Of a stretch of DNA of 64,000 bases, positions 998-51,263 are shown in pieces. The notes under the pieces were generated by a model that saw nothing but the letters and a program-made list of their open reading frames with translations, was not told the origin of the DNA and ran no database searches. The position numbers and the translations under genes were made by a program. The stretch is from Candidatus Nomurabacteria bacterium (GTDB lineage: Bacteria; Patescibacteriota; Patescibacteriia; HK-STAS-PATE-3), in contig CP060223.1 of assembly GCA_023898465.1 (NCBI GenBank), positions 992,001-1,056,000 of the forward strand, in the 5' to 3' direction. Each line of letters opens with the position of its first letter. Within the stretch, counting starts at the first letter, position 1.

Positions 998-1133
998 ACT
1001 TGAGGCGCAGCATGAAGAGTATTTGAGAGCAGTGTGGTACACCCCGCTGCTCTTTATCTTGACTTTCTTCCTCTTTTTTCGCACACTGTGGCTGGTTCCT
1101 TGCATTTGAATGAACAAAAGGCTGGGGGAAGAT

Positions 1134-1634
1134 ATGAGGCTAATCCAAGTAGGCGAATTGGTACTGAGCCTGCGGAGCAATTTAGGAACTTTGGTCAGTC
1201 TGAGCGATGACATTGTTCGCATGGACGACAAGGTGGACAATATGGCTCAGGACGAAAGTCAGGAGTCGACTCCGAGCCCGGAGGATGATGATGGACCAGA
1301 GGCAAGCCCGGTGATGTCCATGGAACAACTCATGGGGCAGATCGGGGAAACCTGGCAGCGGATAGGGGGAGCCGCAACTACTCTTCTCGACGAAAGAGAG
1401 AGCCCCGGCTATGGAGCCGCGTGCCACTGCATGGGCGAGATGTTGATGGGTCTTCATCAGCGCCTCGGTGGGAGGTCCCTGGATGACAGTGGCAGGGAGC
1501 TTGTTGCTGCACTGCATGAATCTTTGCAGGGAATAGGCACTGACCCTGGCAACATCTCAATGATGAGTCTCGGGCATTACAGTAGCGATTTCAGTGAGCG
1601 CTATCTTGGCTGGTGCGCGAGACAAAGGGGCTAG
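1134..1634 (+). CDS. hypothetical acidic protein (start at 1110 or 1134)
   Basis: ORF in the same GC-rich block; followed by a hairpin/T-run terminator. Confidence 0.35.
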   Translation: MRLIQVGELVLSLRSNLGTLVSLSDDIVRMDDKVDNMAQDESQESTPSPEDDDGPEASPVMSMEQLMGQIGETWQRIGGAATTLLDERESPGYGAACHCMGEMLMGLHQRLGGRSLDDSGRELVAALHESLQGIGTDPGNISMMSLGHYSSDFSERYLGWCARQRG

Positions 1635-2309: not shown

Positions 2310-3316
2310 TGGACGTTAGGGAAATAAGTGACGCGGTAGCTTGGGATGGATTTATCGGAGCGCAAAATCAAGCGCAGTTTTTACAGTCTTGGCATTGGGG
2401 TGAATTTCAGCGAGCGCTAGGTCGACAAATAGTACGCCTGGGTGTCTTTGACGGAGCGCGGCAACTCGCAGCCGCCCAAGGTGCCATTTATCATCTGCCG
2501 ATGAATCAACGCTATCTCTATATTCCTCGTGGCCCCATTATGCTGGACTATACTGACAAAGCAGTGTGGCAGGCGCTTCATCAAGCCTTATTGGAGCGGG
2601 CGCAACAAGCTCGTGCATTGGCGATTCGGATAGAGCCACTCATGCTCCGCAGCGCTGAAGCACCATCGATTGTTGAGTTGGGGTATCAACAGACTGAGGC
2701 AATGCAGCCGGCTGATACACGACTCCTTTCCCTTCACACAAGCGAGGATGACATCCTAAATGCAATGCATCAGAAGACTCGCTACAATATTCGCTTGGCT
2801 GAGAAGAAGGGTGTGCAGGTGATAACGACACACGCGGAAAAAGACCTCGAGACCTTTTTACAGCTCCAGCACGTGACCGCGAGCCGCGATAACATTAGCC
2901 CCTTCCCAGACAGCTACTTCCGCACAATGTTTGCGACTTTACCAGAGCTCATGCGCTCCATCGTGCTGGCGCAATACAACGGCATGACCCTAGCAGCCAA
3001 TCTCATGATTCGTTATGGCGATACCATGACCTATAGTCATGGTGCTTCATCAAATGAGCATCGAAATGTGATGGCACCCTATCTTGCCCAATGGCGATCA
3101 ATTCAACACGCAGCGCAGTCAGCTTTGAAATGGTATGACTTCCGTGGTATTGCACCGAGTGACGATCCACAACATGCCTGGGCTGGTATTACACGTTTCA
3201 AAGCCGGCTTCGGTGGCGAGGCGGTGCATCTCATTGGCACCTATGATTTCCCAGTTGAAAAAGGTTGGTATCAAGCCTATATGTTTGGTAGGAAGTTAGT
3301 CGGCTTGGTCCGTTAG
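2309..3316 (+). CDS. FemAB-family peptidoglycan bridge-formation (aminoacyl-tRNA dependent peptidyltransferase)-like protein
   Basis: N-terminal FLQSWHWGEF... and overall size/pattern typical of the FemAB/GNAT-fold family; start overlaps ruvA stop. Confidence 0.55.
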   Translation: MDVREISDAVAWDGFIGAQNQAQFLQSWHWGEFQRALGRQIVRLGVFDGARQLAAAQGAIYHLPMNQRYLYIPRGPIMLDYTDKAVWQALHQALLERAQQARALAIRIEPLMLRSAEAPSIVELGYQQTEAMQPADTRLLSLHTSEDDILNAMHQKTRYNIRLAEKKGVQVITTHAEKDLETFLQLQHVTASRDNISPFPDSYFRTMFATLPELMRSIVLAQYNGMTLAANLMIRYGDTMTYSHGASSNEHRNVMAPYLAQWRSIQHAAQSALKWYDFRGIAPSDDPQHAWAGITRFKAGFGGEAVHLIGTYDFPVEKGWYQAYMFGRKLVGLVR

Positions 3317-30921: not shown

Positions 30922-30991
30922 CCTTGACATTGATGTCGGCATTACTTATGTTGGCAGTGTTTGTTGCACCTTAAAGAGGAGGGAAGAGTCG

Positions 30992-31180
30992 ATGGGAGAT
31001 TGTGAGGGTGAACACGAGGGCGTTAGGACTGGACTTACGGAAGTCTACTGGGATCCCAAATCAGGGAAGTTTCTATATAGAGGCCGTACGCGTCCGGGTG
31101 TGCCCAGTGAAAGGTCCATCAAGTCGAAGCTCGGGGAGAAGTCGAAATCTCGAAAGAAAAGGAGTGGCAAGAAGAAATGA
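30992..31180 (+). CDS. hypothetical small Lys/Arg-rich protein
   Basis: AGGAGGG RBS; followed by two hairpin/T-run terminators (31188-31225 and 31277-31305). Confidence 0.35.
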   Translation: MGDCEGEHEGVRTGLTEVYWDPKSGKFLYRGRTRPGVPSERSIKSKLGEKSKSRKKRSGKKK

Positions 31181-31305
31181 GGCGGCGTATGGCGACACAT
31201 CAGGACGATGGTCGCCTTTTTCTTATAAAAAGCAAAAAGCTGAGATAGTGACTAGTTTCAAAAAATGAACGAAAAAGAGACTGACACAGAGGCCAGTCTC
31301 TTTGG

Positions 31306-31600
31306 AATTCAATCAGATCGCGTTATCGAACACGAGTCCCCATCATTTGTTGACGGGGCCGCGGAATGACGCGGGGAGGTGGCGAGGGTCGAGTGGTGCG
31401 TCTGCTTTGGATGAGCAGGCGGGCCGCCATTCGTACAGCAAATCGTCCGTCAACACAAGGGCGAAGTCCGTATTTGAAATTCGCCCACAGGGTTCTCCTG
31501 TTCGTGGCGATCATGCCAGTCCTTTCGTTGCAGTGTGGAAAGTGCATTCCCTCCACTAACATAGCTAGTATAGCGCGTTCCTATACGACTGCAAGTGGAT
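31306..31600. ncRNA. candidate structured non-coding RNA (unclassified), GC-rich, no credible ORF
   Basis: About 295 nt at about 58% GC between two terminators and the promoter of the next gene; all three plus-strand frames and one minus-strand frame are open with no RBS or start context; nested helices GTTGACGG/CCGTCAAC, CCGCG/CGCGG, TCTGC/GCAG, GGGCGAA/TTCGCCC. Confidence 0.25.
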
Positions 31601-31616
31601 AGCGTACAATGCACAT

Positions 31617-32303
31617 ATGTCAGAACGATTACAGAAATTTATTGCCCGTTCGAGTCAGTATTCGCGACGCCGAGCTGAGGAGCTCATGAAAAGCGGTGTG
31701 GTAAAAGTAAACGGCCAGGTTATTCGCCAACTCGGCACCAGTGTAAATCCAGAAGAAGACGTGGTGGAGGTGCTTGGTAAGAGGGTGAATCCAGAAACGC
31801 GGATCCGCTACATAGTTGTACATAAGCCGCGCGGGTATGTGTGTACACGGGCGCGTCATGCAAAAGAAAAAACAGTCTACGACCTTGTGCCAAATAGTCG
31901 AGACCTGGTGATTGCTGGGCGCTTGGACAAAGAGTCAGAGGGTCTCGTACTACTCACCAATGATGGCGCATTAGTGCAGCAGCTGACCCATCCTAGTTAC
32001 CAGCATGAGAAAGAATACGAAGTAGTAACTGCGCAGCGAATCACTGATGCTCATATTGCCAAACTGCTTCGTGGAGTGCCGCTTAAGGAAGGTTTGGCAA
32101 AAGCGGATAAAGTACAACGAATAAGTGAGAAGAAAATAAGACTAGTACTTCATCAAGGTTGGAAACGGCAAATTCGTCGTATGTGTGAAGTGATTGGCTT
32201 AAGCGTATTGCGATTGAAGCGAATTCGCATGGGGAGTCTGAAGCTTGATACACTTGAACTTGGCGCATCCCGCGGTGTGAAAAGGGATGACTTTTTAAGT
32301 TAG
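31617..32303 (+). CDS. pseudouridine synthase, RsuA/RluB family (S4 domain + catalytic domain)
   Basis: S4 motif RLQKFIARSSQYSRRRAEELM..GVVKVNG, then VVHKPRGYVCT...GRLDKESEGLVLLTNDG. Confidence 0.85.
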   Translation: MSERLQKFIARSSQYSRRRAEELMKSGVVKVNGQVIRQLGTSVNPEEDVVEVLGKRVNPETRIRYIVVHKPRGYVCTRARHAKEKTVYDLVPNSRDLVIAGRLDKESEGLVLLTNDGALVQQLTHPSYQHEKEYEVVTAQRITDAHIAKLLRGVPLKEGLAKADKVQRISEKKIRLVLHQGWKRQIRRMCEVIGLSVLRLKRIRMGSLKLDTLELGASRGVKRDDFLS

Positions 32304-32398
32304 ATATTGTTGAAGAAAAAGCATTGTAACAGCTGCTTGTCTATTTTTTTGCTATGTGTTAAAAAAGGGAATGGATCTTTTCAACCTGGAGGTGAGTT

Positions 32399-32623
32399 AT
32401 GGGTTGTCATGAGTCTAGTAATGGCCCCGATGCACATGACTGTGCCGACTGGGAAAGTTGGGTGGAGTTTTTGCAGGGACCTAAGCCAACTTCTCCGCTG
32501 TTGGATGTACCTCGAGAATCGAGCGGATTTTCTGGAATCGATGAAGGTCTGAGACAGGATTTCTGGGCTAGCCTTTTGCGTTTTTCGAAGATCCTGAATG
32601 AAGAGAAGCCTGAGTCGAGCTAA
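32399..32623 (+). CDS. hypothetical small protein
   Basis: GGAGGTGAG RBS; GC-rich. Confidence 0.3.
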   Translation: MGCHESSNGPDAHDCADWESWVEFLQGPKPTSPLLDVPRESSGFSGIDEGLRQDFWASLLRFSKILNEEKPESS

Positions 32624-32634
32624 GGAGGGACAGT

Positions 32635-32892
32635 ATGGGAACCGGAGAATGTACTGGTGGAGAACGCATCCGGACTGGTGAGTCCTGGGAGGAGCATCAG
32701 GAAGGCTATCGCTATCTCGAGATGCAAGCGCGCTTGGACGCTATGTCAGATGCTCTTGGTCTGCCCTTGGCTGGTTCGAGTCGTCGAATGGAAGTGGTGC
32801 CGCCTGCTCAGGTGCCGAGGTGGTTGCGACCTGACGCATCAATGCAGCGGCCGAAGTATGCACCTTGGTATCGCCAGTCGCATGAATGGTGA
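32635..32892 (+). CDS. hypothetical small protein
   Basis: AAGGAGGGAC RBS; 12 nt after the previous ORF. Confidence 0.3.
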   Translation: MGTGECTGGERIRTGESWEEHQEGYRYLEMQARLDAMSDALGLPLAGSSRRMEVVPPAQVPRWLRPDASMQRPKYAPWYRQSHEW

Positions 32893-33025
32893 GTCGGCAT
32901 GCACGACATCAACATCCAATAGAGAGGTCGTCCTATCAAGGAACGACCTTTTTCTTATAATAGTTTTTTGAAAAAAAATTTAGTTTGGAATAGTATAATA
33001 AAAGAAAGCATTAAACAAATAGCAT

Positions 33026-33643
33026 ATGCAATCAAAAATACTCACCGCAACACTTTCTGTAGCTATTATCATAATGGCGGGTGTAATTATCTATTTATTA
33101 GGAACAAATAAGGAGAGTCAGACCACGGCGACAACAAATTCTTCATTAACGAACACTAGTGTCTTGGTTGATACGGTGACCGAAAAGAATTGTTTGGCTG
33201 ATGATTGTCTCTTGGTTGATAACCTGGAATACCCAGCAGCCAATCTTCCTTCATATGTAATCACCGCGCTTGGCAAAGCAATTGATGATGAGTATAAAGC
33301 GCGAGCGACTTACGAAGCGGTAATTGATCAATTTGGTTCCACTCGACCCTTCTCCATGATCATCCGGGCTGAGGAGCAGCACATTAGCTCACTTAAAGCT
33401 ATATATGATAAGTATGGAGTAGATATCCCGGTTGATCCGTATGAGGTCGACGCTCTCGACATCCCCGATACAATTGCGGAAGCGTGTCAACTTGGAGTAG
33501 AGGCGGAAATTGCAAATGCTGCGTTATATCGAGATGAGTTATTACCAGAGGTGAGCGCATACGCCGACATAATCTCAGTGTTTGAAAGCTTAATGAATGC
33601 CTCACAAGAGAAGCATCTTCCGGCATTTCAAAAGTGTAGTTGA
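33026..33643 (+). CDS. DUF2202-type ferritin-like secreted protein
   Basis: N-terminal TM/signal; AIDDEYKARATYEAVIDQFG...IRAEEQHISSLKAIYDKYGVDIP and a second half-repeat, typical of the DUF2202 ferritin-like domain. Confidence 0.6.
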   Translation: MQSKILTATLSVAIIIMAGVIIYLLGTNKESQTTATTNSSLTNTSVLVDTVTEKNCLADDCLLVDNLEYPAANLPSYVITALGKAIDDEYKARATYEAVIDQFGSTRPFSMIIRAEEQHISSLKAIYDKYGVDIPVDPYEVDALDIPDTIAEACQLGVEAEIANAALYRDELLPEVSAYADIISVFESLMNASQEKHLPAFQKCS

Positions 33644-47702: not shown

Positions 47703-50790
<3,088 letters not shown>

Positions 50791-51036
50791 ACATTAGAGT
50801 TTGGAATAACGAATGCAACAAACATTGACATTCGAGTTATTCCGCGTCATCATTCTTTGCAGCTATGGAAAGACTTAAGCAATTTCGTGTCAGTCTGAGT
50901 CTGATTATCCTCGGATTGGTAGTAACGGCCTTTGTTGGAATCGTTTTAGCCGTCTCGCCAGCCACGTTAATTGGTCCACAATAGTCCTATTCATGAGGGG
51001 CCGGTGGGTAGTAATTCGTCCTAGGCGGATTACTAG

Positions 51037-51152
51037 CCTCCGGTGCTTCAAGCGATGAGGTCACACCCGATCCCATTCCGAACTCGGTCGTTAAGCTCAT
51101 CAGCGCTGATGATACTACGGGGCATACCGTTGGGAAAGTAAGCCAGTGCCGG
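51037..51152 (+). rRNA. rrf: 5S ribosomal RNA
   Basis: CCGATCCCATTCCGAACTCGGTCGTTAAGC...GGGAAAGTAAGCCAGTGCCGG matches the 5S core. Confidence 0.75.
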
Positions 51153-51263
51153 TTTATCAAGAAACTCTTGGAGAAATTCAGGAGTTTTTTGTTTTTTTGC
51201 CCGTGTGCTAGGCTGTAAATAAGGATGTCGGGGATAGTTCTTTGGAAAAGGAGGACAGGACGC

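Follow-up and report, generated by a model that had tools for sequence, protein, structure and literature searches.

Among the described systems closest to the locus reported here are the type I toxin mRNAs, exemplified by hok/sok of plasmid R1 and aapA1/IsoA1 of Helicobacter pylori. The determinants of such mRNAs, as gathered in T1TAdb, are a stem-loop at the 5' end, occlusion of the initiation region, a long-distance interaction between the 5' and 3' ends, and a terminator stem-loop (PMC8594479; PMC6733600). A second point of reference is the set of unannotated bacterial small proteins uncovered by ribosome profiling and comparative genomics, a phenomenon treated in, among others, PMC5345727 and PMC4633059. 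Small basic ribosomal proteins whose structured mRNAs are autoregulated, such as bL34, bL36 and bS21, provide a third comparison. Short arginine-rich motifs are also known from RNA-binding peptides such as the N protein of phage lambda and Rev and Tat of HIV. Members of the candidate phyla radiation have tiny genomes in which a large fraction of the genes lacks a known function and small genes systematically escape annotation. Here we analyze a stretch of 64 kb from a Candidatus Nomurabacteria bacterium (contig CP060223.1, positions 992,001 to 1,056,000; hereafter the window, numbered from its first letter), in which the segment at 31306-31600 had been proposed, in an earlier note made without database searches, to be a structured RNA free of open reading frames (ORFs). 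Our analysis indicates that the minus strand of the segment probably carries a small protein gene (31514..31323) that is lineage-restricted and has escaped annotation, with its own expression signals and with an mRNA that is itself under structural constraint.

The minus strand of the segment holds a coding sequence (CDS) of 63 codons, running from an ATG at 31514 to a TAA stop codon at 31325-31323, with the predicted product MIATNRRTLWANFKYGLRPCVDGRFAVRMAARLLIQSRRTTRPSPPPRVIPRPRQQMMGTRVR. A Shine-Dalgarno (SD) sequence, AAAGGA (31520..31525), lies 5 nt before the ATG, so that the earlier description of this frame as lacking start context does not hold. The three plus-strand frames said to be open across the segment in fact contain 5, 1 and 2 stops. 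Likewise, the reported 58% GC is reached only by the core at 31323-31514 (57.8%), the segment as a whole measuring 54.2% and the whole window 48.3%. On L081, a Logan assembly contig from run SRR12358676 that is identical to the window, gene callers reported within the segment only a 34-codon ORF at its left edge. Neither a repeat nor a paralogue of the region was found in the window, where the small gene is single-copy.

Contigs of relatives were fetched by a protein search with RluB, the product of the adjacent gene. This plus-strand rluB-type pseudouridine synthase gene (31617..32303; Pfam S4 and PseudoU_synth_2), whose homologues are named 23S rRNA pseudouridine 2605 synthase, is divergent from the small gene, and the RluB proteins of the relatives are 56-63% identical to that of the window. 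Seven distinct sequences of the unit were compared: the window, L082, L083, L085, L086/L087, L090-L092 and L093. In several relatives ssb, rpsF and a UPF0020 methyltransferase gene stand in this order ahead of rluB, from which an uncalled gap of 300-630 nt separates them. On visual inspection, TTCGTGGCGATCATG..AGTCCTTTC is common to the window and the gaps of L082, L083 and L085; on the minus strand this stretch amounts to the SD sequence, the ATG and the codons M-I-A-T-N-R-R-T. In all seven sequences the gap between the methyltransferase gene and rluB contains an intact ORF on the minus strand, 61-66 codons long, that starts with M-[ITV]-A-T-[NKH]-R-[RK]-T, and in every family locus this ORF is divergent from rluB. 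Homologues with an intact coding gene in one of the frames were what the earlier note had itself named as evidence against an RNA; we looked for them, and all seven sequences carry such a gene on the minus strand, complete with SD sequence, ATG and a coding pattern of substitution, in place of the proposed ORF-free plus-strand RNA.

The substitution pattern was assessed from nucleotide-level alignments as the ratio of nonsynonymous to synonymous differences per site (pN/pS). In 4/4 pair comparisons the sense frame had the lowest ratio of the six frames, 0.52-0.73 vs 0.73-2.0. Constraint is strongest at the start of the gene, where codons 1-19 have a pN/pS of about 0.1 and where differences at the first, second and third codon positions number 1/2/8 between the window and L082 and 0/3/7 between L085 and L086, a third-position excess with a binomial p=4e-4 over these two independent pairs. 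Averaged over the pairs among the seven sequences, the differences by codon position are 0.19/0.25/0.55 in codons 1-19 and 0.50/0.49/0.68 in codons 20-45. The insertions and deletions that separate the window from L082 measure 6 and 3 nt within the CDS, and 1 and 7 nt within the leader. On this comparative evidence, the segment carries a real, unannotated small gene on the minus strand, and selection acts on the N-terminal two-thirds of its protein.

The family has a narrow distribution, and protein, profile and metagenome searches detected no relatives outside one Patescibacteria subclade. A word-indexed search across 5.8 billion proteins yielded two called relatives of the small protein and no others. 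An exhaustive HMMER profile search of 1.84 billion representatives returned the family itself and repeat-protein noise only, the eukaryote-like repeat proteins among its matches being judged spurious from their sequences. One further locus, encoding a protein identical to that of L086, came from a metagenome scan with back-translated motifs. Among species-representative genomes, the window RluB has its best matches, at 56% identity or less, in metagenome-assembled Patescibacteria genomes, of which several bear the label Kerfeldbacteria. When 31181-31616 was compared with 80 rluB loci of such genomes, blastn, nhmmer and six-frame tblastn gave no significant matches; these 80 genomes are either too distant or without the small-gene unit. 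We also screened the region upstream of rluB for basic ORFs of 40-100 codons that are divergent and preceded by an SD sequence. Of the 80 other Patescibacteria loci, 79 extended far enough upstream to be screened, and none of these had such an ORF; every clade member that extended far enough had one. Because the screen was positive in the clade only, such ORFs are not a by-product of base composition. L088 and L084 had too little upstream sequence to be assessed, and L089 has another upstream context.

Signals for an independent transcription unit surround the ORF, and the promoter-like site, SD sequence, ATG and stop are each present in 7/7 sequences. The pattern TTGnnn-N16-18-TAnA[CA]T occurs once, in the homologous place, in every one of them. 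In the window it consists of the -35-like hexamer TTGCAG (31589..31594) and, at a spacing of 16 nt, the -10-like hexamer TATACT (31567..31572), which ends 52 nt before the ATG. The TTG and TA.ACT columns are invariant in a five-sequence alignment. A generic promoter scan overlooked the window site, because its -35 hexamer matches TTGACA at only 3 of 6 positions. The distance from the end of the -10 hexamer to the ATG is 52-60 nt in the window and L082, and 89-93 nt in the other sequences. Near the predicted transcript start, the minimum free energy (MFE) and centroid structures both contain the stem-loop GUGGAGGG-AAUGCA-CUUUCCAC (31535..31556), with equivalents in L082 (GCGGGGGG/CUUUCCGC), in L083, L090 and L093 (GAGGG/CCCUC), and in L085 and L086 (GGGAG/CUCUC); the window and L082 differ in it by one U-A to C-G change. 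Across the family, AAAGG(A/G) or GAGG stands 5-7 nt before the ATG.

Downstream of the stop codon, the unit of the window ends in a putative intrinsic terminator (31260..31303), made up of the stem AAAGAGACUG/CAGUCUCUUU (31303-31274) and a U-rich tail (31273-31260). The homologues likewise have a G+C-rich hairpin and a U-run 3' of the stop on the same strand. Hairpins stand on both sides of the segment (about 31191-31216 and 31274-31303), and the earlier note had read both as terminators bounding a plus-strand RNA. The first was read correctly: at 31191-31225 the genes upstream do end in a plus-strand terminator (GGCGAC...GUCGCC followed by UUUUUCUU). The second, given in the note as 31277-31305, has its U-run on the minus strand only (UUUUUCGUUCAUUUUUU), the plus-strand 3' sequence being GGAAUUC, and it therefore ends the minus-strand unit and is not the boundary of a plus-strand RNA. 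The two hairpins, 31191-31225 (plus) and 31303-31260 (minus), are convergent terminators. The strand of the unit is the minus strand, since promoter, terminator and ORF all lie on it and since the G-U pairs of the 5' stem-loop and of the L090 helix described below form on that strand only.

The neighboring rluB gene looks leaderless, with a -10-like hexamer that ends 6 nt before its ATG. This hexamer is TACAAT in the window (31605-31619) and TAGCGT in L083 (about 2983-3003) and L085 (about 866-903), and L085 has TTGCGA 17 nt upstream of it. The sequences of the window, L083 and L085 contain no SD sequence at normal distance from the rluB start. The rluB promoter and that of the small gene stand back to back. 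At its 3' end, the small gene in some relatives runs into the convergent methyltransferase ORF, where the latter encodes a basic C-terminal extension; the overlap measures 59 nt in L085 (542-600) and 8 nt in L093 (1137-1144), and the overlapping convergent transcripts of these two loci would be partly mutually antisense.

The earlier proposal of a structured RNA was sound in one respect, namely that the locus folds well. The 295-nt segment folds better than dinucleotide shuffles on the plus strand (z -3.11) and on the minus strand (z -2.84), and all six family transcripts that were folded beat their shuffles (z -3.65, -5.31, -1.73, -1.63, -2.44 and -1.78; that is, -1.6 to -5.3). Each independent fold closes the reading frame by pairing the first codons with the stop region, and this conserved closing helix was absent from the helices that had been listed. 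In the MFE structure of the window, the 5' arm (31490..31512, CDS nt 3-25) consists of GAUCGC, CGAACA, GAG and CCC. The 3' arm (31316..31341) places GGG, CUC and UGUUCG before the stop and GCGAUC just after it, such that GAUCGC (CDS nt 3-8) pairs with GCGAUC, CGAACA (nt 11-16) with UGUUCG (nt 183-188), GAG with CUC, and CCC with GGG. RNAduplex assigns the closing helix of the window -29.1 kcal/mol, where shuffles give -15.8 +/- 3.4 (p about 0.001). The helix comprises about 19 pairs in the window and L082, between which three pairs have changed in a compensatory manner (two in the change from GAUC:GAUC to GACU:AGUC, and one from GAG:CUC to GAA:UUC).

A helix that joins codons 2-9 to the stop-codon region is present in 7/7 sequences, with five compensatory pair changes in all. 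In clade B, which comprises L083, L085, L086, L090 and L093, CDS nt 16-23, covering the Arg-Arg-Thr codons, pair 8/8 with a 3' arm of eight bases that begins at the G of the stop codon or, in L090, one nucleotide after it. The pairing is CGAAGGAC:GUCCUUCG in L083, L085 and L086. L090 has CGGAGAAC:GUUCUUCG, with one G-C to A-U change and one A-U to G-U change, and L093 has CGGAGGAC:GUCCUCCG, with an A-U to G-C change. The changes in the 5' arm of clade B fall at synonymous sites and are matched in the 3' untranslated region (UTR), with zero pairs broken. The leaders of this clade are also longer by a segment of ~35 nt, and in the folds the GUGGCGAU of this segment is paired with codons 2-4 (AUCGCCAC). 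Between L085 and L086, identity is 92.5% in the leader, 92.9% in the 3' UTR and 82.1% in the CDS. The conserved helix was found only on direct comparison of the start and stop regions; MAFFT had put L090 one column off, and the helix pair table was made by script. Judged by these paired substitutions, selection acts on the helix that joins the start and stop regions.

The sequence and helices quoted in the earlier note are all present in the window. Its long-range helix, GTTGACGG/CCGTCAAC, exists at 31349-31356/31447-31454, 1-2 nt from the positions that had been assigned to it, and the local helices are CCGCG/CGCGG (31359/31370), CTGC/GCAG (31402/31415), GGGCGAA/TTCGCCC (31459/31480) and GGAA/TTCC (31537/31547). 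As a conserved structure these five helices did not stand up to comparison, for only GTTGACGG/CCGTCAAC is kept, in L082 only, with one U-A to C-G change. The same note had seen no convincing match to RNase P RNA, tmRNA, signal recognition particle RNA or a group II intron, and both Rfam and ARAGORN were negative too. With Rfam 15 at gathering thresholds, a scan of the whole window gave no match in the region; the families covered include RNase P RNA, tmRNA, signal recognition particle RNA, 6S, group II introns, OLE, HEARO and GOLLD. At E<=10, 31100-31700 gave just two chance-level matches (GRIK4 3' UTR, 16.8 bits; STnc450, 16.3 bits), and at E<=1 the seven related loci gave nothing. ARAGORN found no tmRNA. 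A weak resemblance to RNase P RNA that had been suggested for part of the segment found no counterpart in Rfam, either at gathering thresholds or at E<=10.

The predicted protein of the window has 63 residues, an isoelectric point (pI) of 12 and a grand average of hydropathy (GRAVY) of -0.59, with 15 Arg+Lys vs 1 Asp+Glu. Family members range from 61 to 66 residues, with GRAVY of -0.59 to -0.89, 15-17 Arg+Lys and a pI of about 12. AlphaFold2, run on a three-sequence alignment, predicts with low confidence helices at residues 6-15 and 23-39 and a disordered tail. Neither the composition of the protein nor these helices include a hydrophobic or membrane-spanning helix. The N-terminal ~45 residues are conserved, and the tail is variable and basic; going by the model, the tail is probably disordered. 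Searches of Pfam, NCBIfam, PHROGs, PADLOC and PDB sequences gave nothing better than E=0.05, all matches being far below curated cut-offs. Set apart by these library searches and by the exhaustive profile search, the protein is a new, narrowly distributed family.

Compared with the systems outlined at the outset, the locus combines features of several. Like type I toxin mRNAs, it presents a small ORF on a highly folded, closed mRNA, and the gene is lineage-restricted and overlooked by annotation. Unlike them, it encodes a hydrophilic, Arg-rich protein in place of the usual hydrophobic membrane peptide, no antisense RNA gene was found by a consensus promoter scan, and the gene is single-copy in the window and holds a fixed place beside rluB. 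The family resembles other small bacterial proteins in being shorter than 70 residues, missed by gene callers, equipped with its own SD sequence and promoter, and recognizable by conservation among close relatives only. It differs from them in being known from sequence alone, as a new family in one Patescibacteria subclade, and in having an unusually strong, conserved closing helix in its mRNA. Small basic ribosomal proteins are similar in size, extreme basicity, ribosome-related neighbors and a structured mRNA. In contrast to them, the small protein has no Pfam, NCBIfam or PDB profile match, is absent from most Patescibacteria, and evolves much faster than is usual for such proteins, its homologues being 35-54% identical to the window protein where RluB is 56-63% identical. 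As a lead only, the short Arg-rich N-terminal segment, which is predicted to be helical, is reminiscent of the Arg-rich-motif peptides, although the context of the small gene is cellular and not viral.

A unit comparable in layout was seen on L094, whose RluB is 57% identical. In the same position and orientation (1095-1470, minus strand), this contig has a basic ORF of 64 residues (1355..1161) with the promoter-like site TTGCCA-17-TACAAT, the SD sequence AAAGGAAG, a strong terminator, a fold z of -3.5 and a helix closing the 5' and 3' ends. A comparison of the L094 ORF with the family by hhalign gave no homology. The slot and the architecture may be conserved there while the protein differs.

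Several observations weigh against a protein-coding gene with a structurally constrained message. Protein constraint is weak overall (pN/pS 0.5-0.7), the C-terminal third of the ORF is without codon periodicity (0.54/0.62/0.65 over the seven sequences), and GC-rich sequence keeps long ORFs open by chance. The antisense frame is also stop-free in 2/4 pair comparisons, though with a pN/pS of 1.35-1.63. Among the contigs read, just two have the ORF among their gene calls, just one called relative came from the exhaustive profile search, and the AlphaFold2 model is of low confidence (predicted local distance difference test of 62, from a 3-sequence alignment). As for the RNA, the 5'-3' helix lies in different aligned columns in the two clades, and RNAalifold, applied to a five-sequence MAFFT alignment, yielded no global consensus structure (-16.4 kcal/mol, covariation +2.96). 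A non-coding structured small RNA from the minus strand, with the fold as the functional product and an incidental ORF kept open by GC-rich composition, would accommodate the aperiodic last third of the ORF, the strong folding of every family transcript folded, the compensatory conservation of the 5'-3' helix, UTRs that are more conserved than the ORF, and the occurrence on L094 of a non-homologous ORF in the same place within an equally well-folded transcript (z -3.5). We nevertheless consider it unlikely, as it leaves aside the third-position excess and the pN/pS of about 0.1 in codons 1-19, the lowest pN/pS of the sense frame throughout, an SD sequence and ATG at the right spacing in 7/7 sequences, indels in threes within the ORF and not within the leader, and the lack of any Rfam match. 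In the 5' arm, the compensatory changes lie in invariant Arg-Arg-Thr codons, at their synonymous sites, as expected if protein and RNA are both constrained. The chances are far smaller for a structured RNA on the plus strand, whether of a new class or a divergent RNA of the RNase P type, situated between the terminators and the rluB promoter. The good folding of that strand (z -3.11) follows from the symmetry of Watson-Crick helices between strands, and such an RNA is contradicted by the negative Rfam and tmRNA searches, even at E<=10 for Rfam, by the failure to find a plus-strand promoter-like site, by the minus-strand U-run of the 31274-31303 hairpin, by the loss of 4/5 listed helices from every homologue, and by the G-U pairs of the 5' stem-loop and the L090 helix, which become C-A mismatches on the plus strand.

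Equally improbable is a decaying pseudogene remnant or functionless spacer. An ORF with no protein family match would suit it, while an ORF intact in 7/7 sequences, together with a conserved promoter, SD sequence, start, stop and terminator, would not, and none of the six frames is similar to any gene in the 80 related loci. The remaining alternative concerns what the gene encodes. In a type I toxin-antitoxin-like module, the closed mRNA would block synthesis of a harmful small protein until the message is processed, and an antisense RNA would be as yet unseen. The message does have the determinants listed for such modules (PMC8594479; PMC6733600), from the 5' stem-loop and the sequestered initiation region to the 5'-3' interaction and the terminator stem-loop, and the gene is small, lineage-restricted, unannotated and fast-evolving. 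Even so, we hold this to be quite unlikely. The protein is hydrophilic and Arg-rich without a membrane-spanning stretch (GRAVY -0.59 to -0.89), the gene has a single copy in the window, and PADLOC gave no match. No plus-strand promoter-like site was seen in 31260-31600, either by eye or by a consensus scan, which cannot exclude one. Furthermore, the gene keeps one fixed syntenic position across relatives with RluB just 56-63% identical to that of the window, which suggests vertical inheritance as a housekeeping neighbor.

For the small protein gene with a constrained message, we propose the following mechanism. A sigma-70-like promoter would drive a minus-strand transcript with a leader of about 45 nt that opens with the 5' stem-loop. 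The long-range helix would pair codons 2-9 with the stop-codon region and thereby close the whole reading frame as a panhandle. Together with the leader stem on codons 2-4 in clade B, the panhandle would cover bases within the ribosome initiation footprint, and the message may be poorly translated until the panhandle is opened or processed. With the stop codon in the 3' arm or at its edge, a terminating ribosome would hold the helix open. The protein may bind nucleic acid, perhaps RNA or the ribosome, as suggested by its charge and by its neighbors rpsF, an rRNA/tRNA-type methyltransferase gene and rluB. Our preferred reading of its function is accordingly a tightly controlled, nucleic-acid-binding small basic protein, with a toxin as a minority alternative and a purely non-coding RNA less likely still. 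Three points favor nucleic-acid binding over toxicity: the hydrophilic nature of the protein, the failure of the consensus scan to find an antisense promoter, and the fixed position of the gene by ribosome-related genes across fairly distant relatives.

Other features of the window deserve brief mention. Just upstream of the plus-strand terminator lies a second uncalled small ORF (30992-31180, plus strand) of 62 residues, MGDCEGEHEG...KKRSGKKK, with a strong SD sequence (GAGGAGGG), a promoter-like TTGACA-17-TATGTT at 30924-30952 and, behind it, that terminator at about 31191-31225. The ORF is missing from the L081 gene calls, and the related loci contain no homologue of it. Downstream of rluB, the region 32303-33026 contains a GC-rich part (32623-32917, up to 60% GC) and two called ORFs of 74 and 85 residues, for which there was no Pfam match, no homologue in the related loci and no Rfam match at gathering thresholds; it may be another miscalled or non-coding region. 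At 47703-51154 a 23S rRNA match is followed by 5S rRNA. The 23S rRNA probably carries one or more insertions, as the match spans 3087 nt and the model 2925. The Rfam scan gave no 16S rRNA match anywhere in the 64 kb, and the rRNA genes therefore appear unlinked.

The importance of the locus is modest, since unannotated small genes are common and no long-standing question is touched. The analysis adds one new small-protein family, for which it gives coordinates, signals and one particular helix, in a place where gene callers left a gap of 300-600 nt in most contigs read. A stronger claim, that the panhandle acts as a post-transcriptional gate in a subclade-specific switch controlling a new Arg-rich protein that binds nucleic acid or arrests growth, is speculative, and we regard it as possible though improbable. 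Were it true, the gene beside rluB would either follow a non-membrane variant of the type I toxin logic or encode a new factor associated with the ribosome, and the unit on L094 would be a case in which the RNA architecture and the slot were kept and the encoded protein was replaced. If the panhandle gates translation, the locus would be among the few examples of control at the mRNA level proposed for these organisms. More generally, a GC-rich, well-folding and seemingly non-coding segment of a genome of this kind can be a small gene in which selection acts on the structure of the mRNA as well as on the protein.

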